Shown here: positions 39,535 through 62,356 of the stretch, piece after piece
Numbering within the stretch: the first letter of the stretch is position 1
How the letters are laid out: the number at the start of each line of letters is the position of its first letter
NCBI GenBank assembly: GCA_035483045.1
Contig: DATHQD010000035.1
Span: 35,921 to 99,920 of the forward strand
Reading direction: 5' to 3'
From: Terriglobales bacterium
GTDB taxonomy: Bacteria; Acidobacteriota; Terriglobia; Terriglobales; Acidobacteriaceae
DNA: 64,000 nucleotides
Position numbers and translations under genes: made by a program
Notes under the pieces: generated by a model
Told to the model about the DNA's origin: nothing
Database searches by the model: none
The model's input: the letters and a program-made list of their open reading frames with translations, nothing else

Positions 39535-40464
39535 CTACTCAACCCGCTCGCCCGATCGCGGCCGATATCCATTAATAAATTCCTGCGCCGTCATCCGCCG
39601 CTTTCCCTCCATCTGTACCTCAAGCAACTCCAGCGCCGCCGTGCCATCTCCGCAACCAACCATCAGCCGCGATCCCTCAACCAAAATTTCGCCCGAAGCA
39701 ACCCGCGCATCCACCACCCGCGCCCGATGCACGCTCAAAGTCTTCCCCTTAAAAGCCGTAAACGCCCCCGGCCAGGGCTGAAACCCGCGCAGCCGATCCA
39801 ATAAATTCCGCGCCGCCCGCGAAAAATCCATCCGCCCATCCTCCTTTCGCAAAATGGGCGCCAGCGTAGCCCGCGCATCATCCTGCGCCACCGCCCGCAC
39901 TGCGCCACTCTCCAGCCCGCGCAGCGTCTCGACCATCAACGCCGCGCCCATCGAAGCCAGCCGAGGCCCCAGCGTCTCCCCCGTATCCTCCGCATCAATC
40001 GCCATCTCGCGCTGCAGCAAAATGTCGCCCGTATCCAGCCCCGCATCAATCCGCATCGTAGTCGCGCCCGTCACCGTTTCCCCATTCGCAATCGCCCATT
40101 GAATCGGAGCCGCCCCGCGATACTTCGGCAACAACGACCCATGCAGATTCAAATTCCCCAGCCGAGGCAACTCAATCATCCACTGCGGAATAATCCGCCC
40201 ATACCCCACCACAACAATCGCGTCCGCCCGAATCCCCTCCAGCCGCGCCCGAAACTCCAAATTGTTTTTGATCGCCGCCGGCTGCGCCACCTCAATCCCC
40301 AACCGCAAAGCCGCATCCTTCACCGGAGAAAAGCTGACGTCCATTCCCCGCCCGCGGCCTCGATCCGGTTGCGTGACAACGAGAGGAAGCGAATGCCCAG
40401 CCAGAACCAGAGCATCCAACGTAGGAACCGCAAAAGAAGGAGTCCCGCAAAAAACCAGAATCAT
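39535..40464 (-). CDS. fmt: methionyl-tRNA formyltransferase
   Basis: MILVFCGTPSFAVPTL..NLHGSLLPKYRGAAPIQWAI. The first 17 codons of the track ORF lie in the REP-F palindrome and are excluded. Confidence 0.92.
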   Translation of the reverse strand: MILVFCGTPSFAVPTLDALVLAGHSLPLVVTQPDRGRGRGMDVSFSPVKDAALRLGIEVAQPAAIKNNLEFRARLEGIRADAIVVVGYGRIIPQWMIELPRLGNLNLHGSLLPKYRGAAPIQWAIANGETVTGATTMRIDAGLDTGDILLQREMAIDAEDTGETLGPRLASMGAALMVETLRGLESGAVRAVAQDDARATLAPILRKEDGRMDFSRAARNLLDRLRGFQPWPGAFTAFKGKTLSVHRARVVDARVASGEILVEGSRLMVGCGDGTAALELLEVQMEGKRRMTAQEFINGYRPRSGERVE

Positions 40465-40471
40465 AAGAAAA

Positions 40472-40633
40472 CAGGAAAAGCGAGGAACAGGAAAAGCAAG
40501 AACCAGGAAAAGCAAGAAACGGGAAAAGCTGGAAACAGGAAAAGCCTTTCCTGTCTTTTGCTTTTCCTGGGTTTTGCTTTTCCTGCTTTTTGCCTTTCCT
40601 GGTTCTTGCCTTTCCTGTTCCTCGCTTTTCCTG
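40472..40633. repeat. ~160-nt REP-F palindrome filling the def-fmt spacer
   Basis: The left arm is CAGGAAAAGCGAGGAACAGGAAAAGCAAGAACCAGGAAAAGC... The reverse complement of the right arm is CAGGAAAAGCGAGGAACAGGAAAGGCAAGAACCAGGAAAGGC... Confidence 0.85.
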
Positions 40634-40642
40634 CTTCCCGCC

Positions 40643-46217: not shown

Positions 46218-47090
46218 ATGCAAACCGCCCGCATCTCCGCCCTACTAGAACCCTTCCTAATCCATCCGCTCTCCGAACAGCAGCTAAATCAAATATCGAT
46301 ATACATCGATCTATTGCAACGCTGGAACGCCCGCATCAACCTGACCGCCATCCGCACCGAAGAAGAAATAGTAACCCGCCACTTCGGCGAATCCCTATTC
46401 CTGGCCCGCCACGTATTTCCAAATGTGGAGCGGACACTCCTGTCCGCTGAAGCCAACTCCGCCGACATTCCGGCCCGGCCAATCTCCCGAAATCAATGTC
46501 ATCCTGAGCGGAGCCAGGGCATGCGCGAAGCCGATGCCACGGCGGAGTCGAAGGACCCCTACTCGACCAATCAAGCAACGCGCGCTATAGAAAAAGCAAG
46601 CCCGCCCGAGAGCGTAAAGGACACCCGAGATCTAAGCGGTTCAACTGGGTACTGGGTACCGGCTACTAGGTACTGTAAGGTCCTGGATATAGGCTCCGGA
46701 GCCGGATTCCCCGCTCTACCCCTAAAAATCTGGGCCCCTGAGATCCACCTCACCCTGATCGAATCCAACCACAAAAAATCCGCCTTCCTTAAAGAGGCAT
46801 CCCGAGCCCTTACATTCACTAACGTCAATATAATGGCCGAACGAACCGAAGCCCTCCTGGCACGCCCCGACCACCCCCAAGCCGAAGTAGTAACCCTAAG
46901 AGCAGTCGAACATTTCGAAGCCGTCCTCCCCCAGTCCGTCAGTTTCCTGGCCGCAAAAGCCACTCTAGCCCTTCTCATAGGAACGTCTCAACTCCGCTCC
47001 CTAACCATTCAAACCTCCATGAATTGGCAATCACCGATCCCCATACCCAGCTCAAATACCAGAGTGCTAATTATCGGACGAGCGAATTAG
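46218..47090 (+). CDS. rsmG: 16S rRNA (guanine527-N7)-methyltransferase RsmG (GidB), 290 aa with a ~85-aa in-frame repeat-derived insertion
   Basis: The N-terminal region (LLQRWNARINLTAIRTEEEIVTRHFGESL) and the SAM motif (KVLDIGSGAGFPALPLKI..LIESNHKK..VTLRAV) are separated by REP-D/REP-C-encoded sequence. Confidence 0.85.
   Translation: MQTARISALLEPFLIHPLSEQQLNQISIYIDLLQRWNARINLTAIRTEEEIVTRHFGESLFLARHVFPNVERTLLSAEANSADIPARPISRNQCHPERSQGMREADATAESKDPYSTNQATRAIEKASPPESVKDTRDLSGSTGYWVPATRYCKVLDIGSGAGFPALPLKIWAPEIHLTLIESNHKKSAFLKEASRALTFTNVNIMAERTEALLARPDHPQAEVVTLRAVEHFEAVLPQSVSFLAAKATLALLIGTSQLRSLTIQTSMNWQSPIPIPSSNTRVLIIGRAN
46425..46448 (+). repeat. REP-D inside rsmG (forward)
   Basis: GTGGAGCGGACACTCCTGTCCGCT, read in frame as VERTLLSA. 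Confidence 0.75.
46497..46562 (+). repeat. REP-C full inside rsmG (forward); last forward REP in the window
   Basis: TGTCATCCTGAGCGGAGCCAGGGCATGCGCGAAGCCGATGCCACGGCGGAGTCGAAGGACCCCTAC, read in frame as CHPERSQGMREADATAESKDPY. Confidence 0.85.
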
Positions 47091-47238
47091 TGGATAAATT
47101 GCCATTGCACAAACATAGAAGTGGAAAACGAGGCCAATTGTAGCGCAATAATGACATTATAAGTGGCGGATAAACGGGTAATGCACCTTGAGGCGCAACG
47201 CAGGTCGCACCATGAACTAGGCGAACATGAAGCGAAAA

Positions 47239-47254
47239 TGTTCCACGTGGAACA
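47239..47254. promoter_or_regulatory. parS: parS site 1 (perfect palindrome)
   Basis: TGTTCCACGTGGAACA, against the canonical TGTTNCACGTGAAACA. Confidence 0.85.
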
Positions 47255-47290
47255 TTCTTCCCGTCCTGAAGCAAAGCTAGTGCTCTTGTA

Positions 47291-47306
47291 TGTTCCATAT
47301 GGAACG
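47291..47306. promoter_or_regulatory. parS: parS site 2 (variant)
   Basis: TGTTCCATATGGAACG. Confidence 0.7.
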
Positions 47307-47347
47307 TATTGGTGGCCACCTACCGGGGGTTACTGATCAAGAAGTAG

Positions 47348-47363
47348 TGTTCCACATGGAACA
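47348..47363. promoter_or_regulatory. parS: parS site 3 (variant)
   Basis: TGTTCCACATGGAACA. Confidence 0.8.
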
Positions 47364-47447
47364 TTCATCGACTTGCATCATAATCCGGCATTGCTTTCGC
47401 CGGATCTTTCTAATATTCTGGCGCGCAATAGACAGAAAGAAACAATC

Positions 47448-48233
47448 ATGGGACGTGTCATTGCTGTTGCCAACCAGAAGGGTGGCGTTGGGAAGACTAC
47501 GACTGCCATCAACCTTGCAGCATCTTTAGCCGCCGCCGAAGTCAATACGTTGCTGGTTGACTGCGATCCGCAGTCCAACTCTACCAGTGGTCTTGGGTTG
47601 GTGAAGGATCCGGAACGGATCAGCATCTACGATGTTTTGATGGGGGCGGCTTCGGCTGAGGAGGCGCTTCAGCTTACCGAGCTCGAGCAACTTTGGCTGA
47701 TCCCTTCCCATAAGAACCTTATCGGGGCGAACCTCGAGCTGGTCTCGGCGGAGCGGAGGGAGTACCGTCTGCGCGATGCGCTCGCTCCGTTGCTTGATCG
47801 ATTTCAGTTCCTCGTGCTGGATTGTCCTCCGGCATTGGACCTTCTGACTTTGAATTCGCTGGTGGCGGCGGATGGAGTTTTGATCCCTATGCAGGCGGAG
47901 TACTTTGCTTTGGAGGGAGTGTCGGAGCTGCTCGATACTATAGAGAGGATACGGGTCGAGTTGAATCCTGGACTGGCCATCGAAGGCGTGGTGCTGACTA
48001 TGTTTGATGAGCGGACTAATCTAGCTCAGCAGGTGGCGGAGGAGTTGAAAAAATATTTTGGGGATAAGTTGTGCACCACTACGATCCCGCGGAACATACG
48101 GCTGGCGGAGGCTCCCAGTCATGGGCTGCCGGCGCTGGTGTATGACGTTCGGTCGAGGGGGGCGGAGAGTTATATACGGCTGGCTAAAGAGATTTTGGAT
48201 CGACAGGCGGGGGCAGCTCAGGGAGCCGCTTAG
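47448..48233 (+). CDS. parA: chromosome partitioning ATPase ParA/Soj
   Basis: MGRVIAVANQKGGVGKTTTAINLAASLA (deviant Walker A). Uses the internal ATG of track ORF 47373..48233. Confidence 0.95.
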   Translation: MGRVIAVANQKGGVGKTTTAINLAASLAAAEVNTLLVDCDPQSNSTSGLGLVKDPERISIYDVLMGAASAEEALQLTELEQLWLIPSHKNLIGANLELVSAERREYRLRDALAPLLDRFQFLVLDCPPALDLLTLNSLVAADGVLIPMQAEYFALEGVSELLDTIERIRVELNPGLAIEGVVLTMFDERTNLAQQVAEELKKYFGDKLCTTTIPRNIRLAEAPSHGLPALVYDVRSRGAESYIRLAKEILDRQAGAAQGAA

Positions 48234-48310: not shown

Positions 48311-48349
48311 CCCGCCCTTCCGCAAAGTGCGCGGAAGGATGGGGCACCC
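48311..48349 (-). repeat. REP-A (reverse); first reversed REP
   Basis: CCCGCCCTTCCGCAAAGTGCGCGGAAGGATGGGGCACCC. Confidence 0.8.
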
Positions 48350-48396
48350 ACTTTTAATTCAGCGAGAATGCGGCCGCCGCAGAAATTATGGCGGAG

Positions 48397-48462
48397 GTAG
48401 GGGTCCTTCGACTGCGCCACGGCATCCGCTTTGCGGATGATGTGGCTTCGCTCAGGATGACA
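48397..48462 (-). repeat. REP-C full (reverse)
   Basis: GTAGGGGTCCTTCGACTGCGCCACGGCATCCGCTTTGCGGATGATGTGGCTTCGCTCAGGATGACA. Confidence 0.85.
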
Positions 48463-48476
48463 GTTTTACGAGGGGA

Positions 48477-49577
48477 GTGATGATCACTATGGCGAATGTG
48501 GCGGCTGATTCGAAGAATTCGGAGAAGGTGGCGGAGAAGCGGCGGGCTTTGGGGCGAGGGTTGGAATCGCTTTTGCCTGGGCCGCGGGTTGTGATTGCTC
48601 CGCCCACCCTTCCGCAAAGTGCGCGGAAGGATGGGGCACCCGCGGAGAACAGTTCTCAGCTGTCAGTCGTCAGTTCTGAGGCTGCGAGTGCTGGTTCTCA
48701 GGCAGTCGTCGAACCTCCCGCGGGTGCGGTTGCTGGAACGGTGGCGCAGATACAGGCGGCGGCTTCGGGGCAGAGTGCTGACATGGGCGTGCAGTTATTG
48801 GCGATTGATTTGATTGAGCGGAATCCTTATCAGACGCGGTACGAATTTAAGAAAGAGGCGTTGGAGGAACTGAGCAGATCGATCAAGGCGCAGGGAGTGT
48901 TGCAGCCGATTGTGGTGCGTCCGGGGGCGGAGGGAAAGTTCGTACTGATTCTGGGCGAGCGGCGGTTGCGGGCTTCGATCCTGGCGGAGATGGCGACGAT
49001 CCCGGCGTTTGTGAGGCGGGTGTCGGAGCAACAAGCGGCGGAGATGACGCTGGTTGAGAACCTGCAGCGGCAGGATCTGAACTGCATAGAGCAAGCGGAG
49101 GCGTTCGCGACCTTGAGCACGCAATTCAAGATGACGCAGGAGGAGATTTCCGCGCGGGCTGGGATCTCGCGAGAGACGGTGACGAATTACATGCGGCTGC
49201 TGAACCTGCCGCACAGCGTGATTGGAGCGCTGCAGACGGGGAAGCTTTCGTATAGCCACGCGCGCGTGCTGTTGCAACTGCGGGACGATGCGGAGATCTG
49301 GAAACTGGCGGAGAAGGTGATGGAAGAGAAGCTGTCGGTGGGGAAACTTGAGGAGTTGGTGGTGGGGAGCGGGTTGCCGAGGCCGGGGTCGGTGCACAAG
49401 TCGGGCGGGGCGCGGTGGGTGGATCCGAATGTGAAGGCGGCGCAGAGGTCGCTTGAGGAAGTTTTGGGGATGCGGGTGCGGATTGCTGACCGTAGAGGTA
49501 GAGGGAAGATTTCGATTGAGTATGCGACGCTAGAGGATTTTGATCGGGTGGTGGGGATGCTTAAGGGGAAGGGGTAG
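48477..49577 (+). CDS. parB: chromosome partitioning protein ParB/Spo0J with an expanded, partly REP-encoded N-terminal linker
   Basis: RRALGRGLESLL .. LIERNPYQTRYEFKKEALEELSRSIKAQGVLQPIVVR..GERRLRA .. HTH. The start is one of GTG 48477, ATG 48480 or ATG 48489. Confidence 0.93.
   Translation: MMITMANVAADSKNSEKVAEKRRALGRGLESLLPGPRVVIAPPTLPQSARKDGAPAENSSQLSVVSSEAASAGSQAVVEPPAGAVAGTVAQIQAAASGQSADMGVQLLAIDLIERNPYQTRYEFKKEALEELSRSIKAQGVLQPIVVRPGAEGKFVLILGERRLRASILAEMATIPAFVRRVSEQQAAEMTLVENLQRQDLNCIEQAEAFATLSTQFKMTQEEISARAGISRETVTNYMRLLNLPHSVIGALQTGKLSYSHARVLLQLRDDAEIWKLAEKVMEEKLSVGKLEELVVGSGLPRPGSVHKSGGARWVDPNVKAAQRSLEEVLGMRVRIADRRGRGKISIEYATLEDFDRVVGMLKGKG
48602..48641 (-). repeat. REP-A inside parB (reverse)
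   Basis: GCCCACCCTTCCGCAAAGTGCGCGGAAGGATGGGGCACCC, read in frame as PPTLPQSARKDGAP. Confidence 0.85.
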
Positions 49578-49598
49578 GTCGCGGGGGGAAATGCAGAG

Positions 49599-49670
49599 GA
49601 CAGGAAAGGCAAAGACCAGGAAAGGCAAAGACCAGGAAAGGCTAGAGTCGGCAAAGGCAGGAGCGGCAGG
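49599..49670 (+). repeat. REP-F low-complexity array (GGAAAGG orientation)
   Basis: GACAGGAAAGGCAAAGACCAGGAAAGGCAAAGACCAGGAAAGGC.. Confidence 0.6.
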
Positions 49671-49757
49671 GGGTTGGGTGTGAGGACGGACGTCCTAATT
49701 GGGAAAAATGGCCTTCGCGATTTGATTCTTGCGGATTCCTTGGAGTGGATGGATGGA

Positions 49758-49848
49758 GTAGGGGTCCCTTCGGCTTCGCTCAGGGCAGGCTCTTCGATTG
49801 CGCCGGGCCATTCGCTTCGCTCTTGGCTCGGGCTCCGCTCAGGATGAG
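49758..49848 (-). repeat. REP-C long variant (reverse)
   Basis: GTAGGGGTCCCTTCGGCTTCGCTCAGGGCAGGCTCTTCGATTGCGCC...GCTCCGCTCAGGATGAG. Confidence 0.7.
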
Positions 49849-49990
49849 ATCGGAAATCTTGAATCTCTCACCACTCGTCGATGCGAAACCTGCTGGTTGA
49901 ATAATTTCTTCCCAGTCTGACGAGTTAGTTGTTCCACTTGTTACTCTTTTGGTTCTGTCTGCAGAACCGCGTTGAGATTATGGCGCCTGC

Positions 49991-50031
49991 GCCCACCCTT
50001 CCGCAAAGTGCGCGGATAGGGTGGGGCACCC
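49991..50031 (-). repeat. REP-A (reverse)
   Basis: GCCCACCCTTCCGCAAAGTGCGCGGATAGGGTGGGGCACCC. Confidence 0.8.
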
Positions 50032-50218
50032 ACTTCTAATGTATGTATCGCGGTCAGGAACGCCACATCGAGGATTTGGTCTTTTATCGCAGCGGTGAAC
50101 CGCTGCGCTGACCAAAAACCTGGTGCTAGAGCCACATTTTTCTTGGCGGGCTAGGGGGCTGTCCCACTTTTTACTCTGTTGGTTCTTCCTTTGATTTCGC
50201 GGGCTGAGGCTTAGTGGG

Positions 50219-50286
50219 GCCGAGCTTACGCTCGGCTGGGCAGGTGGGGGCGCCCTTTGACAAGCTCAGGCAGGCTCTGCCTCTAC
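50219..50286 (-). repeat. REP-B long form (reverse)
   Basis: GCCGAGCTTACGCTCGGCTGGGCAGGTGGGGGCGCCCTTTGACAAGCTCAGGCAGGCTCTGCCTCTAC. Confidence 0.85.
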
Positions 50287-50318
50287 GCGAGTTTGGCGGA
50301 GAGCCCGGGAGATCAAAA

Positions 50319-50366
50319 CCCCCACCCTAACGTCGCATAGAACGCGACGTTAAGGGTGGGGCACCC
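50319..50366 (-). repeat. REP-A (reverse)
   Basis: CCCCCACCCTAACGTCGCATAGAACGCGACGTTAAGGGTGGGGCACCC. Confidence 0.8.
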
Positions 50367-50406
50367 GCTTCCTACTCTTTGCGCCTGGTATTTTCAGACG
50401 CGGGCG

Positions 50407-50970
50407 TTAGCTGGCTTTGGGCATGGGGCGGTCGGATTTGGAGAAGTCGGCTTTGGATTCTCCGGTGCTGGCTATGTCCTGGGCTCCGGTTTGCTCGAGA
50501 ATTATTTTGGCTCGCTTGGTCCAGTCGGAGCTATCGGAGTGAACGCTTAGGAGGATGCCGCCTTCTTTGATGCGGCCTTCGTAGCGCTTGGCTTCGTACT
50601 CGGGGATGCCCATGCCGATCAGGGCTCCGGCGATGCCGCCGATGGCGCCACCTACGCCCACTCCGGCTAGAGCGGCCATGATGGGACCGGCGGCGATGAA
50701 GGGACCGAGGCCGGGAATGGCCAGGGCGCCGATGCCGGCCAGCCAACCTAGGCCGCCGCCTACTACGGCTCCGGTGGTGACGCCGGTGGCGGTGCCTTCG
50801 GGGGCCTTGGTGCCTTTCTTGACGGCGAAATCTTTGGTGCCTACATTTTCAGGGAAAAGCACGGAGATGTCGGTGTTGCGAAAGCCGGCTGCCTGGAAGG
50901 CATCGACGGCTGCTTCGACGCTGGAGTAAGTGGAGTAGAGTCCGAACACTGCTGTATTTTTTCCCGCCAT
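50407..50970 (-). CDS. putative general-stress-type membrane protein (YflT/GSP17M-like N-domain plus glycine-zipper segment)
   Basis: AVFGLYSTYSSVEAAVDAFQAAGFRNTDISVL, then a Gly/Ala-rich hydrophobic core, then EYEAKRYEGRIKEGGILLSVH. Family recalled from memory. Confidence 0.4.
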   Translation of the reverse strand: MAGKNTAVFGLYSTYSSVEAAVDAFQAAGFRNTDISVLFPENVGTKDFAVKKGTKAPEGTATGVTTGAVVGGGLGWLAGIGALAIPGLGPFIAAGPIMAALAGVGVGGAIGGIAGALIGMGIPEYEAKRYEGRIKEGGILLSVHSDSSDWTKRAKIILEQTGAQDIASTGESKADFSKSDRPMPKAS

Positions 50971-51257
50971 GGTGAGTTCTCCTTTGATTAGTTATCTGGT
51001 TATTGTTGTGGTTTGATTTCCAACTTAATTTCTTACGATCAGCGGCCGTCCGGACGAAGTGGCGGTGGTGCTTATTTTGGTAGGCCGGCGGCGACAAAGA
51101 ATCGCCGCGTTTGATTGAGTTGGCTGAGGGCAATCTCCATAATTATTTTCACTGTCTCTATATAAGAGGAGCGGGCGGACTGGAGACATCGGGTGGAGTA
51201 TGTATTTTGGGCGCATTATCCCGCAGGGGGATAGACGTCACGCGGAAGTAAGAGCTT

Positions 51258-51323
51258 GCGGGCTTCGCTCGCTGGGCAGGTGAGGGCACCCTTCGACAAG
51301 CTCAGGGCAGGCTCTGCCCCTAC
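51258..51323 (-). repeat. REP-B long form (reverse)
   Basis: GCGGGCTTCGCTCGCTGGGCAGGTGAGGGCACCCTTCGACAAGCTCAGGGCAGGCTCTGCCCCTAC. Confidence 0.85.
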
Positions 51324-51463
51324 GCGAGTGTGGCGGGGGATCTCGCACTCAAAAATAAATGACAGATGAAATTTGGTGGGCGGCGACGAGGGCGATTCAC
51401 TAACTGATACTTTGAGGGGTTGAGTTTTGGTATTGTCGCTGGACTGAAGATTTGTGAGGCGAT

Positions 51464-53320
51464 ATGGGACTTGTGAATGCGTTGTTTGGGCGGCCGCTGG
51501 CTTCTTCGGAGGATGAGGGGGAGCGGATTAGTCCGTTGCAGGGGATTCCTACGTTTGGGCTCGATGCTTTGAGCTCGGCGGCGTACGGGCCGGAGGCGGC
51601 GCTGACGATTTTGCTGCCTTTGGGATTGCTGGGCGTGAAGTATATTGTGCCGCTTACTTTCGCGATTATTGGGTTGCTGATCATTGTTTATTTCAGTTAC
51701 CGGCAGACGATTGCAGCTTATCCGAATGGCGGGGGATCGTACACGGTTGCTAAGGAGAATCTGGGCGAAGGCGCGGGGCTGGTGGCGGGCGCGGCGTTGA
51801 TGATCGATTACCTGCTGAATGTGGCGGTGGGAATTTCGGCGGGGATTGGGGCGCTGGTTTCGGCGGTGCCATCGTTGTTGCCGCACACTTTGGGGCTTTG
51901 CTTATTGGTGCTGGTGATATTGACGGTGGTGAATCTTCGCGGGATCAAGGAGGCGGGGACGGCGTTTGTGGCACCTACATATTTTTTTGTGGGGACACTG
52001 GCGATCGTGATTCTGGTGGGATTTTATAAGGTGATTGTTTCGGGAGGGCATCCGGCGGCAGTGGCTTCTTTGGCGTCGCCGGTCGCGCCTTCCGGGACGG
52101 TCGAGATGGTGGGAGCGTGGATTCTGGTGAAGGCGTTTGCCTCGGGATGCACGGCGCTGACTGGCGTGGAGGCGGTGAGCAATGGAGTGCAGGCGTTTCG
52201 GAAGCCGGTGGTGGATGGGGCGCGAGTTACTTTGACGGCGATTATTGCGATCCTGATTGTGCTGCTGGGGGGAATTGCCGTACTGGTACGTTACTACGGA
52301 ATTGTAGCTACGGACCCGGGAGCTCCGGGGTATCAGAGCGTGTTGTCGTTGCTGACGGCGGCGGTCGCGGGGAAAGGGATTTTTTACGATGTAACGATGT
52401 TCTCGGTGCTGGTGGTGTTGTGTTTGTCGGCGAACACATCGTTTGCGGATTTTCCGCGGCTGTGCCGGATGATTGCGCGGGACGATTATTTGCCGCATTC
52501 GCTGACGACGCGAGGACGGCGGCTGGTGTTTTCGCAGGGGATATGGGGGCTGGCGATATTGGCGGCGCTGCTGCTGATTTTATTTGGCGGGGTGACGGAC
52601 CGGTTGATTCCGCTGTTTGCGGTGGGAGCGTTTATGGCGTTCACGCTGTCGCAGGCGGGGATGGTGGGACATTGGCGGAAGACGAAGGGATTTTGCGGGG
52701 CGATGGTGGTGAACGGATTTGGAGCGCTGGCCACGGGGCTGACGGTGATGGTGATTCTGGCAGCGAAATTTTTGGAGGGGGCGTGGGTGGTGGTGCTGTT
52801 GTTGCCGGCGTTGCTGATTTTCATGGGCAGGATTAAGCGTCATTATGAGGAGGCGAATGAAGAGGTGGCGCTGAAGGGTGGAGTGGAGTTGACGGCGGAG
52901 AATGCGGCGCCTCCGATTGTGCTAGTGCCGGTGGACCGGTGGAATGCGGCGACGGAGAAGGCGTTGCAGTTTGCGCTGACGCTGTCTCCGGATGTGGAGG
53001 CGGTGCATGTGACGTGCGATGCGGACGATGACAAGGCGCCGTGGTCGGAGAAGCCTCCGGCGGGGCAGCGGGTGCCGAAGCTGGTGACGTTGGAGTCGCC
53101 GTATCGGCTGGTGGTGCATCCGATAGTGGATTATGTGTTGAAGGTGGAGAAGGAGAATCCGGCGCGGACGGTGGCGGTGGTGATTGCTTCGATGGTGGAG
53201 CGGCATTGGTATCACTATTTTCTGCACAATCAGAGAGGGCAGCTGTTGACGGCGCAGCTGCTGCTGCGCGGGGATGAGCGGATTAATATTGTGAATGTGC
53301 CCTGGTATTTGAAGGCGTAG
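51464..53320 (+). CDS. APC-superfamily permease with a C-terminal cytosolic domain, KimA-like (K+/H+ symporter family)
   Basis: 618 aa. N-terminus FGRPLASSEDEGERISPLQGIPTFGLDALSSAAYGPEAAL resembles the KimA GKPL..LSSDALSSVAYGTE motif. About 12 TM segments plus a ~170-aa soluble tail. Confidence 0.7.
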   Translation: MGLVNALFGRPLASSEDEGERISPLQGIPTFGLDALSSAAYGPEAALTILLPLGLLGVKYIVPLTFAIIGLLIIVYFSYRQTIAAYPNGGGSYTVAKENLGEGAGLVAGAALMIDYLLNVAVGISAGIGALVSAVPSLLPHTLGLCLLVLVILTVVNLRGIKEAGTAFVAPTYFFVGTLAIVILVGFYKVIVSGGHPAAVASLASPVAPSGTVEMVGAWILVKAFASGCTALTGVEAVSNGVQAFRKPVVDGARVTLTAIIAILIVLLGGIAVLVRYYGIVATDPGAPGYQSVLSLLTAAVAGKGIFYDVTMFSVLVVLCLSANTSFADFPRLCRMIARDDYLPHSLTTRGRRLVFSQGIWGLAILAALLLILFGGVTDRLIPLFAVGAFMAFTLSQAGMVGHWRKTKGFCGAMVVNGFGALATGLTVMVILAAKFLEGAWVVVLLLPALLIFMGRIKRHYEEANEEVALKGGVELTAENAAPPIVLVPVDRWNAATEKALQFALTLSPDVEAVHVTCDADDDKAPWSEKPPAGQRVPKLVTLESPYRLVVHPIVDYVLKVEKENPARTVAVVIASMVERHWYHYFLHNQRGQLLTAQLLLRGDERINIVNVPWYLKA

Positions 53321-53380
53321 GAAAGGCATGGGCAGGAAAAGAAAGGGGCAGGAAAAGCAAAGGGCAGGAAAAGCAAGAGC
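53320..53380 (+). repeat. REP-F low-complexity array (GGAAAAG orientation)
   Basis: GGAAAGGCATGGGCAGGAAAAGAAAGGGGCAGGAAAAGCAAAGGGCAGGAAAAGC. Confidence 0.6.
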
Positions 53381-53521
53381 GGGTGACGAGTGAGAATGGA
53401 GATCCCGTCGAGTTTCTCCGGTTCGATGCGAAGTGATGCGTTCGTCCATTGGATTCATCGTCGCGCTTCCGCTAATTTCGCTTTGAACAGTGACTTGCTC
53501 TGACTTCGGAAGGAGTACCGA

Positions 53522-53917
53522 ATGGACGGCACAGATGGACTGAAAGAGACCACGCGCGCGACCGCGCCGGTCGCGTCGAACACGCCTGAGTCGAACAAAC
53601 TTAGTGTGAACGTTTTTACGGCCCCGGGAAAAACGATGTACGTCGGCGACACCACCCCTGAGAGCCGAAAAAATTGGATCGCGGCGCTGGACCGATTAGC
53701 GGCGCTCAATCCGAGGATGATTGTTGCCGGTCATAAGAAGCCGGGCGCGCCCGACTCTCCCTCGACCATTCAAGACACCAAGCGTTACCTGCAGGACTTC
53801 GATCGGCTGCAGAAAACCGCGGCGTCCGACCGGGAGCTGTTCGATCAGATGACGGAGCTATACCCGCATTGGGTAGCCAATCAGTCGTGGTTGATGTTTG
53901 GATTCCCGGGGGCATAA
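53522..53917 (+). pseudogene. C-terminal half of an MBL-fold metallo-hydrolase (N-terminal HxHxDH half absent); possible gene remnant
   Basis: VGDTTPESRKNWIAALDRLAALNPRMIVAGHKKPG..YLQDF resembles the distal His region of MBL-fold enzymes. There is no room for the N-terminal half upstream. AAGGAG precedes the ATG, so it may still be expressed. Confidence 0.4.
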
Positions 53918-53956
53918 GCTACATTTCAAACTTCGATTTCGAAAAGGAGAAGCAAA

Positions 53957-54769
53957 ATGACAACAAAAGGAAAAGTCCTGGTGCTAGTCTCGAGCGGTCG
54001 CGGGTTGCCCTTGAAAGATGGCAAGGTTTATAAGGGCGCTGGCTACTATCTCAACGAGCTGACGGTTCCGGTCCGCGCCCTCATGCAGGAGGGCTACGAA
54101 ATCACTTTCGCCAACCCCAAAGGCAACGCGCCCCAAGTGGATGTGCATTCAGAGGTCGCCGATTTCTTCGGCGGGGACGCGGCCAGGCTCCAGGACTATA
54201 TGCTATTCCGCGACGGCCTAGCTGGGCTCAGAGATCCAAAGCGCATCGCGGATGTCGTCGCATCGGGCCTGGATCAATATGACGCTGTTTTCGTCCCCGG
54301 CGGCCACGGGCCGATGATGGATCTTCTCGATGATCCCGACGCTGGTACTGTGATGAGACACTTTCATAAAACATCCAAGCCTACGGCAGTGCTCTGCCAT
54401 GGCCCGATTTCACTACTGTCGGCTCTTCCGAATTCGACGGAGGTGGTCGCCGCGCTGGCGGCGGGCGATGCCGCTGGAGCGCGGGCAAAGGCTAAGGGTT
54501 GGATCTACGCTGGATATAAGATGACTATCTTTTCGACGGCGGAAGAGCAGCAGCGGGAACCGCTTGAGATAGGTGGCAAGGTGCTGTTTTATCCGGACTT
54601 CGCCTTGCGTACGGCGGGCGGTGAAGTAAGTGTGCTCGCTCCATGGACGAGCTACGCCCTGCAAGATCGCGAGTTGATCTCGGGTCAGAACCCGTTCTCT
54701 GATCAAGCGCTTCTGAAACTTCTTCTACCGGCACTCAATCGGAGGAAGGAGTCGGTTTCAGCGGCATAA
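53957..54769 (+). CDS. DJ-1/PfpI (class I glutamine amidotransferase-like) family protein
   Basis: YDAVFVPGGHGPMMDL..PTAVLCHGPISLL (nucleophile-elbow Cys). AAGGAGAAG precedes the ATG. Confidence 0.8.
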   Translation: MTTKGKVLVLVSSGRGLPLKDGKVYKGAGYYLNELTVPVRALMQEGYEITFANPKGNAPQVDVHSEVADFFGGDAARLQDYMLFRDGLAGLRDPKRIADVVASGLDQYDAVFVPGGHGPMMDLLDDPDAGTVMRHFHKTSKPTAVLCHGPISLLSALPNSTEVVAALAAGDAAGARAKAKGWIYAGYKMTIFSTAEEQQREPLEIGGKVLFYPDFALRTAGGEVSVLAPWTSYALQDRELISGQNPFSDQALLKLLLPALNRRKESVSAA

Positions 54770-55307
54770 GAGGACCGCGAGGAGATTTGGGGTTATTCTC
54801 GTCCCCGGATATTCTGGTTGAAAAGGCGCCGGGTGGCCCACATCTCGTGTTCGCGAAGTATCCCCACTTCTCGCAAAGGACGCGAGAAATGGGGCACCCG
54901 GCCGTGTGGAGTAATAAACAAACAGGCCCGCAAACATAGCTTGAACCCTTCGCGAGAAGCGCAGGACGGACCACCTCAACCTCAGCATACGCCAGCGAAA
55001 AACCCCACTTCTCGCAAAGGACGCGAGAAATGGGGCACCCGGCGAGAAATGGGGCACCCGGCCGTGTCGACCGGTGATGCGAATGCTTCCTGGCGCAGGG
55101 TGGAGGGTTGTCCCTGGTTGAAAAGGTGCCAGGTGGCGCACATCTACCATTCGCGAAGTATCCCCACTTCTCGCAAAGAGCGCGAGAAATGGGGCACCCG
55201 GCCTATTTATTTAAGGGCTTTTGATTTGAACTCATGATGAGTCCGATCTCGTAGCAATGTTCATCCGTCACAGACATGACCTTGCATTGATGCGTAGGAT
55301 TTTATTC

Positions 55308-55946
55308 ATGCCTTGGGGCTTGAAGCGTTATTACGGCACCGGAAGCCTCCATTTCATCACCTGGAGCTGCTATCGACGCAGCCCACTGCTAGGCAGCCCC
55401 GCGCGACGCGACCTGGTACTTACTGCCCTCGAACTGATGCGCGTTCGCTATCGCTACGCCGTGATCGGATACGTGGTCATGCCCGAACACGTACATCTAT
55501 TGATTTCCGAACCTTTGATAGGCGATCCCTCGAAGATAATTCAGGCTGTGAAGCTGAGCGTCTCCCGGCGGCTGGCCATTGCGGGCGAATTCTCTGGCCG
55601 GTTCTGGCAGAGTCGCTTCTATGATTTCAATCTGTGGGGCCACCAGAAAGAGATTGAGAAACTGAAGTACATGCATCGCAATCCGGTGGTGCGCGGACTG
55701 GTGGCAAGCCCGGAGGATTGGCGGTGGAGCAGCTACCGATCCTATGCATACGGAGAAGCAGGATTAGTTCGGATCAACGACTGGACTTGGGGGAGGAGAA
55801 AATTCGATGGAGCGCTGGCTGAGGGTTGGTTGGTGTCGGCGAAAAGCCCCACTTCTCGCAAAGGACGCGAGAAATGGGGCACCCGGCTAGTCCGGAGGAT
55901 GGCTGTAGTAGCTACCGATTCTATGCTTACGGAGAGGCGGGATTAG
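55308..55946 (+). CDS. REP-associated tyrosine transposase (RAYT; IS200/IS605 TnpA-like Y1 HUH enzyme)
   Basis: HFITWSCYRR.., HUH motif PEHVHLLIS, catalytic-Tyr motif KYMHRNPVVRGLVASPEDWRWSSY. The ORF reads through a REP-A2 copy at its 3-prime end. Confidence 0.85.
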   Translation: MPWGLKRYYGTGSLHFITWSCYRRSPLLGSPARRDLVLTALELMRVRYRYAVIGYVVMPEHVHLLISEPLIGDPSKIIQAVKLSVSRRLAIAGEFSGRFWQSRFYDFNLWGHQKEIEKLKYMHRNPVVRGLVASPEDWRWSSYRSYAYGEAGLVRINDWTWGRRKFDGALAEGWLVSAKSPTSRKGREKWGTRLVRRMAVVATDSMLTERRD

Positions 55947-56073
55947 TTCGGATCAACGACTGGACTTGGTGGGAGGAGAAAATTCGATGGAGCGCTGGCT
56001 GAGGGGTGGATGGTGTCGGCGAAAAGCCCCACTTCTCGCAAAGGACGCGAGAAATGGGGCACCCGGCTAGTCC
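55711..56073. repeat. tandem duplication (~182 bp x 2) of the RAYT 3-prime end plus REP-A2
   Basis: Copy A is 55711-55893 and copy B is 55894-56073. Both contain GATTAGTTCGGATCAACGACTGGACTTGG..GAGAAAATTCGATGGAGCGCTGGCTGAGGG..REP-A2..GGCTAGTCC. Confidence 0.9.
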
Positions 56074-56190
56074 CCGATACCTTGGTCCAATTGTTTTCTC
56101 TTCTCTTGTCGGGGTTAATCGGTGGCAGGTATGAATACGAAAGAAATAGAATCAGCGGATGAGTGCTGGTTATCGGAATTGGAGGCGGCA

Positions 56191-56637
56191 ATGAGCAGCG
56201 TACAAATCGAACAGAAGAGTTATGAGATGCCCCCGAAAGAGGGGATCAGCGTCGCGTGTTTTCTCACCGTCGCCGACCTTGAGCGATCGGCTCGCTACTA
56301 CGAAAAGGTCTTCGGCGCTCGCATTCTGACCATGGGTGACGGCAACGCGCCTCCATACCTTCAGTTGGCGAATATCTGGATGATTCTGAACGTTGGAGGC
56401 GGGCCGACTCCGGATAAGCCGACGGTAACGCTCAGCGTTCCCGACCCGAATCACATCAACAGCTTTATGAATTTCCGGGTTGCGGATATTCAAGCGTGCT
56501 ATCAATTATGGAAAAGTCGAGGGGCGGAGTTCATCACGCCACCGATACCCAAGTACGGCGAGATACGTTGCTACATCCGCGATCCTGACGGCTATATCAT
56601 CGAAGTCGGACAGAGCACTGACCTTACGTACGGTTAA
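56191..56637 (+). CDS. VOC (glyoxalase/bleomycin-resistance/dioxygenase) family protein
   Basis: FLTVADLERSARYYEKVFGA..CYIRDPDGYIIEVGQ. GGAGG lies 5 nt before ATG 56191. Longer starts at 56122 or 56131 are possible. Confidence 0.7.
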   Translation: MSSVQIEQKSYEMPPKEGISVACFLTVADLERSARYYEKVFGARILTMGDGNAPPYLQLANIWMILNVGGGPTPDKPTVTLSVPDPNHINSFMNFRVADIQACYQLWKSRGAEFITPPIPKYGEIRCYIRDPDGYIIEVGQSTDLTYG

Positions 56638-56713
56638 CGCGTTCCTCCTTTTGCGTGACGTACAAGAAAAGCCGGCCGACGCTGGGCGGCTATTCTGAAG
56701 TAAGTCTTGGCGG

Positions 56714-58297
56714 TTACTGCTGCACCACCTGAATTACTACAGGCGAGGTGCTACCGCTGAGGATCTGGTCACCGCCGTACACTGCCTTGATATGTGGAGT
56801 GCCCACGCGCAAGGTCGAGGTGGTGAAGGGCGCAGAGCCGCCACTCAATATCCCGGTTCCGAGTACGGTCGTGCCATGCTGAAAGGTCACCGTTTCTCCA
56901 TCTGGGGGCTTGGGAGTGACTACGGCGGTAAAGGTCACCGCTTGTCCGACAGTGGATGGATTCGGTGAAGAACTGATAGCGATCGTTGTCGCTCGAGCCA
57001 ATGGATTCAGTTCTAAGGCCACGCCGCAACCACCGGCGCCGGGACAGTAGCTGGATGTTCCACCACCGTAGGTGGTTCCGTAAAGATTGCCGCGGTCGAA
57101 AATCAAGGTGTCAGTCGGGTTACCGCCGTTGGTGAAATTGAAAGGCCAGAGAAGCATCCAATCGTAGCCGGAACCGTTGACCGCCAGCTCGAAGACACTG
57201 CCGCATCCGTCGTAGCACGGCGAGTCTTCCCGCGTGGGAGGCTTCAAAACACCGAATGTTGTCGTGGCGTAGATATTCCCGGAGGAGTCGAGCACGATCG
57301 CTGCTTTAGGATTGGCGCCATCGTTCCAAATGGAGGAACGAAGAATCTCCTCGGTATAGGCTCCGGCTGAAGGAGTCAACTTCCAAACCGTTCCCAGACC
57401 TTTGTTAACGCCGCCAATAACGGTGGTGCCATAGATATTTCCGGCGCTGTCGAGCACTGGAGTTCCTTCAGGATCAGCCCCGTCGTTTGGGCCGCCTGCG
57501 AAGGAGTGAAGAATGGTTGCATTCCAGCCTCCGCTTCCGTTTGGTGACAACTTGAAAACATGGCCAGCTTTCAGGTCGTCGGCGCCGTAAAGGTTGCCGG
57601 AGCCATCCATAGTTAACCCAGGATAGCCGCCGCGATCGTAGATAACCTGCTCATTCCAGCCGCCCCTGCCGTTCGGGGACAACTCGTAAACCGTTCCGGC
57701 TCCGGTGCCTCCGCCAAAAGTTGTGCCGTAGAGGTTGCCGGTCGCGTCCAAAGTGAGACCAGCGAATGGGAAAGCACCGTCGGGGGTTGACATGAAGCTG
57801 TAAAGGACGGTTTCGCACCAGCCATGGCCGCTGTTGCTGCCGCCTGGGCAACCACCGCCGGGCGCGGGGCTGAGCTCAAACACGAGGCCATATCCGGAAT
57901 AAGCGCCAAATGCGAAAGATCCGCCGTAGTAAGTGGTGCCGTAGAGATTGCCGTGGCCGTCGAAGGTGACATTGGAGTCGGGAGACGACCCGTCTGTGCA
58001 GTACAGCAGGGAACAAAAGCTGTACAAGACACTTTCGTTGTAGCCGCCGGCGCCGTTGGGAGAAAGCTCATAGACAGTGCCATACATGTTCGCGCCGCCC
58101 AGTTGGGTGGTTCCGTAGAAATTGCCTGCGCCATCGGGCGTGAGGCTCGCCACGGGGTTCTCACCGTCTACACAGTTCGGCTGGGAGCAAAAGTTGTAGA
58201 GGACGGTCTCGGGTTGAGCGTGCGCTAGTGGCAGAGCGACCAGCAGCAGGGTGGAAAATACAACTGAAAATGTAACCAACGACGGAACGCCTCGCAT
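56714..58297 (-). CDS. secreted 7-repeat (GN[LFI]YGTT...GTV[FY]EL) beta-propeller-like protein with a C-terminal Ig-like domain; resembles the 'Gloeo_Verruco/GloVer' repeat family
   Basis: Signal peptide, seven GNxYGTT/GAD/ATT units, CxxxxC and GCP..WC motifs, and a C-terminal SSSPNPSTVGQAVTFTAVV Ig-like segment. Confidence 0.65.
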   Translation of the reverse strand: MRGVPSLVTFSVVFSTLLLVALPLAHAQPETVLYNFCSQPNCVDGENPVASLTPDGAGNFYGTTQLGGANMYGTVYELSPNGAGGYNESVLYSFCSLLYCTDGSSPDSNVTFDGHGNLYGTTYYGGSFAFGAYSGYGLVFELSPAPGGGCPGGSNSGHGWCETVLYSFMSTPDGAFPFAGLTLDATGNLYGTTFGGGTGAGTVYELSPNGRGGWNEQVIYDRGGYPGLTMDGSGNLYGADDLKAGHVFKLSPNGSGGWNATILHSFAGGPNDGADPEGTPVLDSAGNIYGTTVIGGVNKGLGTVWKLTPSAGAYTEEILRSSIWNDGANPKAAIVLDSSGNIYATTTFGVLKPPTREDSPCYDGCGSVFELAVNGSGYDWMLLWPFNFTNGGNPTDTLIFDRGNLYGTTYGGGTSSYCPGAGGCGVALELNPLARATTIAISSSPNPSTVGQAVTFTAVVTPKPPDGETVTFQHGTTVLGTGILSGGSAPFTTSTLRVGTPHIKAVYGGDQILSGSTSPVVIQVVQQ

Positions 58298-58354
58298 ATC
58301 CCTCTCCTCATCTCCTGGAAAAATGTGGCGGTTGTTCTTCGTAACCTTGCGAAG

Positions 58355-59833: not shown

Positions 59834-60034
59834 GGGGGGAATTACGGCTCAACGAGCGGAACCTGCTCCTTGGCGAGGCGCGGGGAATGTTATAAGAAAG
59901 ACCAGTGCCCGGTCAATACCTAACCGCACATTTCGATGTGCGCGATCGCCAATAGACACAATGCAAAGCTTTGCACAGGCCCTACATGACGGGCCTGGAT
60001 TGGCGAGAAACATGATCGAAGTCTTCTTCTACAT

Positions 60035-60712: not shown

Positions 60713-60876
60713 GGGCAGTCCCTCTCTTTAGCTGAGATTAGGAATCGTGAAGGAGGGTAGGTTAGAGGCGTCATGGCGAAGCGGGCAACTGTCAAGACTT
60801 ACAGTGGCTACTGGTTGTAGCCGGAGAGGACAGGACTTAGCACTATCGATTTTGCAGCTGTTTTAATGCGGGCCAA

Positions 60877-62100: not shown

Positions 62101-62251
62101 GTAATTCGCGGCATCGCGTGCCGCGCGGGGGAAGGTGAGTCATCTTACGTTAAGTCTGGTGTCACGCCAAGCACGGAATGAAGCACTTCGGCTGGGAAGG
62201 CAGATTTTTAGTGAGAATCGACAGTTGTTGCGTGGGGAGATCTTGGGTAGG

Positions 62252-62317
62252 GTAGGGGTCCTTCGACTCCGCGGAACGATTCGCTTCGCGAATCGTTCTG
62301 CTGCGCTCAGGATGACA
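62252..62317 (-). repeat. REP-C full (reverse)
   Basis: GTAGGGGTCCTTCGACTCCGCGGAACGATTCGCTTCGCGAATCGTTCTGCTGCGCTCAGGATGACA. Confidence 0.85.
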
Positions 62318-62356
62318 GCGTCGGTGGTGTGCTGATGACAGCGTCGGTGCTGTGCT
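62311..62356. repeat. 23-bp tandem duplication at the REP-C terminus
   Basis: GATGACAGCGTCGGTGGTGTGCT then GATGACAGCGTCGGTGCTGTGCT, followed by GATGACC. Confidence 0.8.

Follow-up and report, generated by a model that had tools for sequence, protein, structure and literature searches.

The stretch of DNA analysed here, hereafter the window, comprises 64,000 nucleotides from an uncultured soil bacterium of the Terriglobales (Acidobacteriota), whose ParA protein finds its top match (83% identical) in a metagenome-assembled genome (MAG) of the Acidobacteriaceae within a collection of species-representative genomes. To judge from its predicted genes, the window has the content of a classic bacterial origin region, with rpmH-rnpA-yidC-jag-dnaA-dnaN, mnmE, rsmG-parAB and a cluster of parS sites. 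At the short spacer between rsmG and parA, both the composition of the strands and the orientation of several families of repetitive extragenic palindromic (REP) elements are reversed, and we regard it as very probable that chromosomal replication in this Terriglobales lineage starts from this spacer, the last ~40 bp of rsmG being included in the origin. The features at the junction are the following:

46218-47090, + strand: rsmG, encoding 290 amino acids, with an in-frame copy of the REP-C family at 46497-46562; transcribed toward the switch in strand composition
47046-47287, no strand: the strand-composition switch, taken as the start zone of both leading strands
47091-47447: the rsmG-parA spacer, 357 bp
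47448-48233, + strand: parA, with the conserved start MGRVIA (gene callers chose a TTG at 47373)
48480-49577, + strand: parB

Two ENA contigs overlap the window: ERZ27253820 k141_4002525, 430 kb long, which is 100% identical over 698-52565, runs 375 kb further left and ends at ~54.2 kb of the window, just short of a repeat-rich transposase locus; and k141_2049468, which covers the right end of the window.

Strand composition

Over the whole 64-kb window the cumulative G-C curve has its minimum at 47060, not at dnaA, and the maximum-likelihood changepoint in GC skew falls at 47060/47061 (2-lnL support interval 47046-47083). The keto (G+T) changepoint lies at 47275 (interval 47227-47287) and the maximum of the cumulative A-T curve at 47238; taken together, these positions bound the switch by the final 40 bp of rsmG on the left and by parS 1 on the right. 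An initial annotation of this stretch, made by reading its letters, had proposed that the + strand turns here from C>G to G>C and gave three hand base counts; the counts were all exact, and the turn is confirmed by the curve and by the third codon positions of genes on either strand.

In 2-kb windows, the + strand between 1 and 47 kb has a GC skew of ~-0.01 to -0.39, most values falling in the range -0.15 to -0.39 and near-zero ones being confined to the surroundings of rimP-nusA at 31-34 kb; to the right of 47 kb the skew is +0.05 to +0.34. The uniform skew persists outside the window, at -0.21 to -0.37 from -8.7 kb to 0 and +0.14 to +0.27 in the right extension (64-70.7 kb), and the left arm is C-rich throughout at least 56 kb. 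At third codon positions the mean skew in the left arm is -0.47 for + genes (n=18) and -0.66 for - genes (n=14), and in the right arm +0.48 for + genes (n=7) and +0.38 for - genes (n=4). Because the sign of the skew is independent of gene strand and its strength is greatest at these synonymous positions, it bears the signature of a replication-associated mutational bias rather than of transcription or coding. The strand rich in G+T is the - strand to the left of the switch and the + strand to the right of it, and as this is the near-universal composition of leading strands, the polarity is that of an origin at 47 kb. Both leading strands diverge at the rsmG-parA spacer.

The bias is very strong, with GC skew up to 0.39 in 2-kb windows and up to 0.78 at the third positions of single genes, a strength that is, to our knowledge, unusual among bacteria. 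Three genes between 53900 and 56650, encoding a DJ-1/PfpI-like protein, a transposase described below and a glyoxalase-like protein, have a third-position skew of ~0 (+0.08, +0.01 and -0.01), while the right-arm genes outside this block range from +0.35 to +0.75, which suggests that the block arrived recently.

Orientation of REP elements

Four families of REP elements, named REP-A to REP-D, are distributed on both sides of the switch, and their orientation was scored by a core-motif search on both strands of the window. Counts to the left and right of the switch are given as forward and reverse:

REP-A core GGGTGCCCCATCC: left 7 and 0; right 0 and 10
REP-B core CGTAGGGGCAGGTGCCC: left 11 and 1; no match on the right within the window
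REP-B second hairpin CTGCCCAGCCGAGC: left 13 and 0; right 0 and 1
REP-C head TGTCATCCTGAGCG: left 17 and 0; right 0 and 4
REP-C tail AGTCGAAGGACCCC: left 13 and 0; right 0 and 2
REP-D GCCTGCCCTGAGCTTG: left 4 and 0; right 0 and 1
1111-46562, + strand: left-arm copies of REP-A, B, C and D, all forward
48311-62514, - strand: right-arm copies of the same families, all reverse

The lone reverse match to the REP-B core on the left, at 7221, is a chance match with three mismatches and without the hairpin. With the four families combined, the left arm holds 41 forward copies and no reverse one, the right arm 16 reverse copies and no forward one (Fisher p = 1.7e-14); when tandem clusters are collapsed the polarity remains at p ~1e-14, with 58/58 independent sites concordant. 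Outside the window the pattern continues, as the left extension adds three REP-C copies, all forward, and the right extension one REP-A, two REP-B and two REP-C copies, all reverse. The initial annotation had proposed that unrelated repeat families reverse independently at this place, and the proposal stands, in the window and again in three related genomes (L001, L213 and L214, described below). Its limits for the reversal were also correct, the final forward copy ending at 46562 and the earliest reverse element lying at ~48311-48349, and its counts needed small revisions: seven forward copies of REP-A and four reverse copies of REP-C were recovered as given, with ten rather than nine reverse copies of REP-A and 17 rather than 18 forward copies of REP-C, while for REP-B, given as 14 forward and two reverse, we find 13-14 forward copies and one reverse copy in the window, two more lying in the right extension.

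Orientation does not follow the neighbouring genes. Forward copies of the left arm are flanked by co-directional + genes in 6 cases, co-directional - genes in 12, convergent genes in 11 and divergent genes in 8, and the reverse copies of the right arm lie mostly between + strand genes; given such mixed arrangements, REP orientation is independent of neighbouring transcription.

REP-B, a typical REP element, consists of CGTAG, a perfect 9-bp hairpin and then a GCCGAGC-GAA-GCTCGGC hairpin (GCCGAGCGAAGCTCGGC), with a folding z of -6.1, and REP-A of GGGTG followed by an imperfect hairpin of 14-15 bp. REP-C has the head TGTCATCCTGAGCG, a variable hairpin that is usually GCGAAGC-tipped, and the tail GAGTCGAAGGACCCCTAC; as the tail ends in CCCCTAC, the GTAG tag of this family sits on the complementary strand, where it adjoins a 6-bp stem. 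A 5' GT(A/G)G tag at the foot of a hairpin is therefore present in REP-B, present on the complement in REP-C, and approached loosely by the GGGTG of REP-A. Copies are 60-100% identical, some of them near-identical to copies elsewhere. No Rfam family matched anywhere in the window at gathering thresholds, and so the REPs are not catalogued RNA families.

Some copies lie inside intact open reading frames: in rsmG (46497-46562), in mnmE (5211-5261 and 6133-6183) and in the yidD frame (7392-7487 and 7700). RsmG has 290 amino acids against the usual ~210, and its REP-C copy encodes the peptide CHPERSQGMREADATAESKDPYS; MnmE has 525 amino acids, and its helical-domain match is spread across 360 residues.

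Arrays of a 16-nt unit, called REP-F (CAGGAAAAGCnnnnAn or its complement), are found at 31957-32020, 40445-40639, 49590-49658 and 53322-53390, and have no Rfam match. They had been thought to behave like the families above, but do not form a clean marker, as the left arrays count 13 forward and 9 reverse units owing to an inverted pair at 40.45-40.64 kb. This array, at 40.5 kb, forms an inverted repeat with 77-nt arms between fmt and def.

Public metagenomes were scanned for the REP-C pattern, and from the 120 contigs retrieved those of at least 2.5 kb were used, with repeats masked for the calculation of skew. Where the absolute skew was at least 0.15, REP-C orientation was concordant with it in 16 contigs, discordant in none and mixed in none; between 0.08 and 0.15 the numbers were 19, 3 and 5, and below 0.03 they were random (7 concordant, 6 discordant, 13 mixed). 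As REP-C orientation tracks skew in these contigs, polarity is a family trait across many soil Acidobacteriota and not an accident of the window.

Related genomes

The switch was compared in five genomes whose flanks differ: the window and the relatives L001, L211, L213 and L214. In L213 (ParA 96% identical; 3.28-Mb contig) the changepoint is at 9707 (9678-9749), in the 3' end of rsmG (8875-9750), and all REP core matches are forward on the left and reverse on the right. In L211 (ParA 92%; 2.28-Mb contig) it is at 9587 (9569-9604), again in the 3' end of rsmG (8926-9618); REPs are few there, and one left REP-C is reversed. L214 (ParA 92%; 5.41-Mb contig) has its changepoint at 10146, ~150 bp within parA, with one forward and one reverse REP on the left and reverse copies throughout on the right, and L001 (ParA 83%) has a skew of -0.175 on the left and +0.191 on the right, with 7 forward copies of REP-C on the left and 12 reverse copies on the right. 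Origin-type polarity, the rsmG-parA location and the absence of a switch at dnaA, each proposed by the initial annotation for the window, are thus each seen in related genomes as well. No switch was found at parA in L004 and L005 (Granulicella and other Acidobacteriaceae) or in other Acidobacteriota, which makes this placement of the origin specific to the lineage; L002, L003 and L013 were uninformative, their skew being too small or their flank too short.

The gene for an elongation factor G (EF-G) paralogue lies to the right of the spacer on the + strand in the window (62513-64000) and to the left of it on the - strand in L001 (1833-3255). Such a change of side with fork orientation kept fits the mark of a symmetric inversion centred on a putative origin. 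A position left of the origin is shared by four relatives (the paralogue lies at ~18-21 kb of L208-L210 and L212), and in every case, the window included, the gene is co-oriented with the fork. Two relatives carry an inserted gene in the spacer: an IS-like gene (HTH_23/28/29/32 domains) at 8701-9978 of L214, between the parS cluster and parA, and a gene at 2460-3057 of L002, between rsmG and parS, whose translation looks by eye like an ERCC4-type nuclease.

Organization of the spacer

The rsmG-parA spacer and the end of rsmG contain the following elements:

47063-47162, no strand: AT-rich stretch (A+T 62%; mean of the window 42%), spanning boxes 1 and 2 and ending at the start of box 3; candidate unwinding region
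47089-47097, - strand: WAGTGG box 1, AGTGGATAA on + and TTATCCACT on -, which departs from the DnaA box at one position; shares bases with the TAG stop of rsmG
47120-47128, - strand: WAGTGG box 2, AGTGGAAAA on + and TTTTCCACT on -, 31 nt after box 1
47162-47173, - strand: WAGTGG box 3, AGTGGCGGATAA on +, 42 nt after box 2
47239-47254, no strand: parS 1, TGTTCCACGTGGAACA, a perfect palindrome
47291-47306, no strand: parS 2, TGTTCCATATGGAACG, three mismatches to TGTTCCACGTGGAACA
47348-47363, no strand: parS 3, TGTTCCACATGGAACA, one mismatch to TGTTCCACGTGGAACA
47382-47405, + strand: hairpin AATCCGGCATTGC...GCCGGAT, ~45-65 nt upstream of the parA ATG, kept in L001, L211, L213 and L214

The word AGTGG, usually preceded by A or T, occurs in three copies on the same strand (47089, 47120 and 47162) at spacings of 31 and 42 nt. 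Exactly these spacings recur in L213 (9749, 9780, 9822) and L211 (9619, 9650, 9692), and the opposite strand has no AGTGG in the box arrays of the window, L213 or L211. From box 1 through box 3, the window and L213 are identical at 42/87 positions (48%). As 31 and 42 nt correspond to about three and four helical turns, the three boxes lie on the same face of the helix. In the window as in L213 and L211, the GC changepoint is no more than ~30-40 bp away from box 1. In L214 the spacing is different (74), as it is in L001 (62, 57, 73), and the counterpart of the AT-rich stretch in L211 is visibly more AT-rich. The 7-9-mers common to the spacers of the window and L001 are confined to parS and the AATCCGGCATTGC element; the phased pattern emerged only on comparison with the closer relatives L211 and L213.

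Against the DnaA box TTATCCACA, box 1 has one mismatch and two further DnaA-like 9-mers have two each, namely box 2 and a third, poorer one, TTATCCGCC, at 47165-47173. The motif TTWTCCACW has four matches in the 64 kb, two at the left edge of the spacer and two in the dnaA-dnaN spacer. We read the WAGTGG array and the AT-rich stretch as the putative initiator-binding and unwinding part of an origin; the boxes may be degenerate DnaA boxes, a reading based on CCACT being positions 5-9 of TTATCCACA, or sites of another initiator-type protein. A box of the TTATCCAC type and the TTTTCCACT motif had both been noticed in the initial annotation; both exist, at 47089-47097 instead of 47100-47108 and at 47120-47128 instead of 47130-47138. 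The argument built on them is weak, for the count of DnaA boxes in the spacer is not above background and the 9-mers are not conserved in relatives, and the phased WAGTGG array should replace it. Counts of DnaA boxes (TTATCCACA, at most two mismatches) do not exceed those of other 400-bp windows and are not used as evidence here.

The parS consensus TGTTNCACGTGAAACA has three matches in the window against 0.13 expected by chance. All three are in the spacer, as had been proposed, and no further copy exists in the window. The AATCCGGCATTGC hairpin is probably a promoter or operator element of parA; scanned for promoters and terminators, the spacer yielded no signal stronger than those of shuffled controls.

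The RAYT locus and the cause of REP polarity

A REP-associated tyrosine transposase (RAYT) is encoded in the right arm:

55308-55946, + strand: RAYT, with HUH motif PEHVHLL and Tyr motif FWQSRFYD
54814-56073, - strand: REPtron-like cluster, with cores of REP-A', a REP-A subfamily, at 54887, 55028, 55047 and 55187 upstream and at 55872 and 56052 downstream of the RAYT

The protein scores 94.8 bits against NCBIfam NF047646.1 (cut-off 80), has a Pfam Y1_Tnp match and matches E. coli TnpA_REP (PDB 4ER8, E = 4.7e-7). The 3' end of the gene and a REP form a tandem duplication with a period of 180 nt (55791-55893 and 55971-56073), and both short-read source contigs break at this locus. REP-A at least appears, from these flanking copies, to be tied to this Y1/HUH enzyme.

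Near-absolute polarity shows that REP gain or loss is strand-specific relative to the replication fork. In the IS200/IS605 family the active strand leaves and enters the lagging-strand template, so that copies mirror the direction of replication (PMC5371812, PMC5027513), and excision of IS608 is favoured on that template (PMC5027513). As to REPs, whose dissemination has been described as poorly understood (PMC8266576), Bertels and Rainey found certain tandem arrays to be forward on one side of a genome and reverse on the other (PMC3116915), and Ton-Hoang and colleagues considered the process possible on both strands for bacterial interspersed mosaic elements (BIMEs) (PMC3333891). Replichore polarity of single REPs is not reported in PMC3733652, PMC3333891, PMC8266576, PMC2817692 or PMC3116915.

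We give roughly even chances to the following account: the RAYT would work on single-stranded DNA at the fork, one orientation of REP alone would be made or would alone survive, and symmetric inversions around the origin would preserve the polarity afterwards. Three causes can be envisaged, namely that RAYT-bound REP strands are joined to 3'-OH ends on the nascent lagging strand, that loss falls preferentially on copies that present their cleavable strand in the lagging-strand template, or that selection acts on polar motifs or hairpins. Several observations weigh against an account of this kind. The strand of REP-A and REP-B that bears tag and hairpin is the C-rich one, that is, the leading-strand template with the sequence of the nascent lagging strand, which is opposite to the IS608 rule. 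The GTAG of REP-C is on the G-rich strand, so that placement on the lagging-strand template fits REP-C alone (the strand used by the RAYT being taken from the position of the tag), and with tags on opposite strands one simple insertion rule does not fit all families. Furthermore, RAYT genes are typically flanked by inverted REPs (PMC2817692), and here all six flanking REP-A' copies are direct, in one orientation. The link to Y1 transposases suggested in the initial annotation gains direct support from the RAYT flanked by REP-A in the window; judged by their tags, REP-A and REP-B run opposite to the lagging-template rule of IS608.

Polarity could alternatively be set by selection after insertion rather than by a fork-coupled bias of insertion, which we think unlikely but deserving of serious weight. 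In one variant, GGGCAGG-type motifs, which REP-B and REP-D carry on their G-rich strand, would serve as polar signals in the manner of Chi or of the FtsK-orienting KOPS; the reverse complements of both families do contain GGGCAGG, which resembles the E. coli KOPS GGGNAGGG. Selection on KOPS is, however, usually strongest toward the terminus, and the polarity here is equally strict 1 kb and 40 kb from the origin; moreover, the lineage has no known KOPS or Chi motif. In a second variant, deletion would remove hairpins, or strands that the RAYT can cleave, where they lie on the lagging-strand template. That REP-A and REP-B keep their tag strand on the leading-strand template is what would be expected if copies on the lagging template were excised, given the preference of IS608 (PMC5027513), and selection or differential loss could explain why families with 5' tags on opposite strands (REP-B and REP-C) are all polar, which one insertion rule could not; that a cognate Y1 transposase is encoded in the window speaks against selection. 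Differential mutational decay of wrongly oriented copies was also considered, and seems insufficient to give 58:0 among copies that are 60-100% identical.

The dnaA locus

The genes usually associated with an origin lie well to the left of the switch:

~6.6-13.6 kb, + strand: rpmH-rnpA-yidD-yidC-jag-dnaA-dnaN
10698-12122, + strand: dnaA, with the composition switch 35 kb to its right and the gene running head-on toward it; no skew switch at dnaA itself
12123-12418, + strand: dnaA-dnaN spacer, a rival origin site or a regulatory cluster of DnaA boxes

If the functional oriC were instead the dnaA-dnaN spacer (12.1-12.4 kb), the switch at rsmG-parA would be a former origin or a mere centromere region. 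The dnaA-dnaN spacer has the densest cluster of TTCCAC or DnaA-box-like motifs in the window (12131, 12141-12149, 12190, 12268 and 12323-12331), with five TTCCAC-type motifs, two exact copies of TTTTCCACT (the two that the initial annotation had noticed) and an AT-rich stretch adjoining dnaN, and these boxes and the AT-rich stretch are kept in three related dnaA loci (L208-L210) despite diverged flanks. All of this counts against an origin at rsmG-parA. Yet yidC (-0.35), dnaA (-0.52) and dnaN (-0.54) are all C-rich at third positions, as is everything up to 47 kb, and no C-to-G switch is found at dnaA-dnaN in the window or in four related dnaA loci, where the skew is +0.07 on the left and ~-0.02 on the right (L208), negative throughout (L209, L210) or weakly positive throughout (L212); the initial annotation was therefore right to see no switch at dnaA. 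The REP copies from 12 to 47 kb, more than 35 in number, all follow the switch at 47 kb, and some of them, being near-identical to copies elsewhere, are probably young. Since neither skew nor young REP copies switch at dnaA-dnaN, replication has not started there for a long time, and we regard an oriC at this spacer as improbable; the cluster is interpreted as a regulatory or titration site, or as a relic of a former origin.

The position of dnaA leads to the same view. L211 and L212 are parts of one contig, ERZ25039587:contig_47238 (1,087,397-1,112,536), on which dnaA runs away from the rsmG-parA spacer at a distance of 22 kb; in the window the gene runs toward the spacer at a distance of 35 kb. 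The switch stays at rsmG-parA while dnaA moves and flips, so that dnaA appears to have no fixed place relative to the origin, and the dnaA block seems to have been inverted within its replichore in one of these two lineages. As the block is co-oriented on contig_47238, its head-on placement in the window seems to stem from a secondary inversion, after which synonymous sites would have re-equilibrated.

A breakpoint or a terminus

A large inversion or other rearrangement that joined segments of opposite skew, with no origin present, might also leave such a switch. Inversions do yield origin-like and terminus-like jumps in skew, gene order around the locus varies between relatives, and the near-zero-skew stretch of 2.7 kb (53.9-56.6 kb) shows that local anomalies of composition exist. 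Such an event is nevertheless highly unlikely here: a breakpoint in the spacer must have recreated the conserved, co-oriented rsmG-parA-parB string, and an inversion between dnaN and rsmG must have recreated the dnaA-dnaN and rsmG-parA adjacencies both; the same junction switches in five genomes with differing flanks; the left arm is uniformly C-rich over its at least 56 kb, on a source contig that continues 375 kb further left; an inversion moves genes and skew together and cannot put most left-arm genes on the C-rich strand; and the phased box array and the parS sites are exactly at the switch. That the site is a replication terminus, in a lineage of inverted skew polarity, is scarcely credible, even though most left-arm genes point toward it and a weak, dif-like, AT-rich near-palindrome lies at ~47144-47167, because the XerD arm of that candidate fails to match dif (GGTGCGCATAATGTATATTATGTTAAAT), the leading strands as defined here have the near-universal G+T-rich polarity, and the window carries the classic origin-region genes and a parS cluster.

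Other genes of the window

The remaining annotated genes are distributed over both strands:

4819-6405, - strand: mnmE
17026-18102, - strand: ruvB
31.3-36.9 kb, + strand: rimP-nusA-infB
38-42.7 kb, - strand: rsmB, fmt, def, aroC
56714-58297 and 58355-59833, - strand: tandem paralogous genes for secreted proteins with GNLYGTT-type repeats

One of the two GNLYGTT-repeat paralogues has a C-terminal bacterial Ig-like domain, and long internal DNA repeats (families D6-D8 and D16) link the pair.

Discussion

The assignment of the origin to the rsmG-parA spacer and the end of rsmG is supported by composition, by the polarity of repeats, by the logic of synteny and by replication in five genomes, and is to be read as a prediction from these. 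A number of observations speak against it. All of the evidence is compositional and comparative. The spacer has no canonical DnaA-box cluster, with four relaxed boxes per 400 bp where other places in the window reach 4-5; sequence of the boxes outside the AGTGG core is not conserved among relatives; and in the spacer of L001 no DnaA box was found within one mismatch. The changepoint of L001 is ~285 bp within parA, not at the end of rsmG. The AT-rich stretch is among the five richest 100-bp stretches, with four other places equal or richer. Finally, an origin at 47.1 kb would leave ~59% of the left-arm genes, among them rnpA, yidC, dnaA, dnaN, nusA and infB, facing the fork head-on, which is unusual.

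If the assignment is right, an initiator (DnaA or another protein) would bind the three WAGTGG boxes on one face of the helix, unwinding would occur in the AT-rich stretch between the boxes, and ParB loaded on the adjacent parS sites would segregate the newly replicated origins. More tentatively, and as a conjecture that we hold to be doubtful as a whole, the origin may have moved into rsmG-parA, a phased WAGTGG array replacing the canonical DnaA-box cluster and merging with parS, while REPs spread in a RAYT-dependent manner by being joined to the nascent lagging strand, for example by strand transfer to the 3'-OH ends of Okazaki fragments, as the mirror image of the IS608 rule. Were RAYT-dependent joining of this kind true, every REP copy would mark the direction of replication, even on short metagenomic contigs.

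An origin tens of kilobases from dnaA beside gid and par genes is a known type of arrangement. In the literature searched we found no description of an origin merged with parS inside the rsmG-parA string, of such an origin lacking a canonical DnaA-box cluster, or of near-absolute REP polarity in several families together with a cognate RAYT. The present analysis gives a prediction of the origin at the level of base pairs for a widespread group of uncultured soil Acidobacteriota, reproduced in five genomes, and the default annotation of an origin "at dnaA" would be wrong for this group. As three phased boxes, an AT-rich stretch and three parS sites are contained in ~360 bp, the candidate origin is compact and bears on the coupling of initiation to segregation. 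Polarity across several families, found beside a cognate RAYT, provides direct evidence from genomes that REP spread or survival is linked to the strand asymmetry of the fork, and its being opposite to the IS608 rule in two families allows competing mechanisms to be told apart. In practice, REP orientation and third-position skew can be used to orient contigs and to flag misassemblies or recent inversions in MAGs of this group.

Comparison with known systems

The oriC of the E. coli/Vibrio type is beside the gid genes (mnmG-rsmG), ~42 kb from dnaA. The origin proposed here is likewise tens of kilobases from dnaA, in the mnmG/rsmG-par neighbourhood and at a C-to-G switch; it differs in lying between rsmG and parA, within a string that is usually co-oriented, with rsmG transcribed into it, in having three parS sites within ~200 bp of the putative initiator boxes and a phased WAGTGG triplet without a canonical cluster of 9-mer DnaA boxes, and in that the dnaA operon is head-on in the window. 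In Bacillus subtilis, Mycobacterium and Streptomyces, oriC is the dnaA-dnaN intergenic region. A conserved DnaA-box cluster and an AT-rich stretch are kept there in the present genome too, but neither skew nor REP polarity switches at dnaA-dnaN in the window or the four related loci, which makes the cluster there probably not the origin.

As in other ParABS centromeres, three 16-bp palindromes matching TGTTNCACGTGAAACA are directly upstream of parA-parB and proximal to the origin. The parS sites of Caulobacter are several kilobases from its origin, whereas here they share a 360-bp spacer with the skew switch.

Like the IS200/IS605 elements (IS608, ISDra2), the REPs have an orientation that follows the direction of replication, and a Y1/HUH relative is encoded in the window. 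Unlike those insertion sequences, they are non-autonomous elements of ~40-90 nt, their bias is essentially absolute (58/58 independent sites), and, in contrast to IS608, the strand of REP-A and REP-B with tag and hairpin is on the leading-strand template. With the REP-RAYT systems of E. coli, Pseudomonas and Stenotrophomonas they share short extragenic hairpins, a 5' GTAG at the foot of a 9-bp stem (REP-B), a RAYT with HUH and Tyr motifs flanked by its own REPs, and copies inside genes as well; by contrast with the REPINs and BIMEs of those bacteria, which are inverted doublets, the copies are mostly single and of one orientation per replichore, and the repeats that flank the RAYT are direct, not inverted as for known RAYT genes. 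Lastly, skewed oligomers such as Chi and the FtsK-orienting KOPS are also words that flip at origin and terminus; these are 8-mers, whereas the polar units described here are whole mobile hairpin elements.

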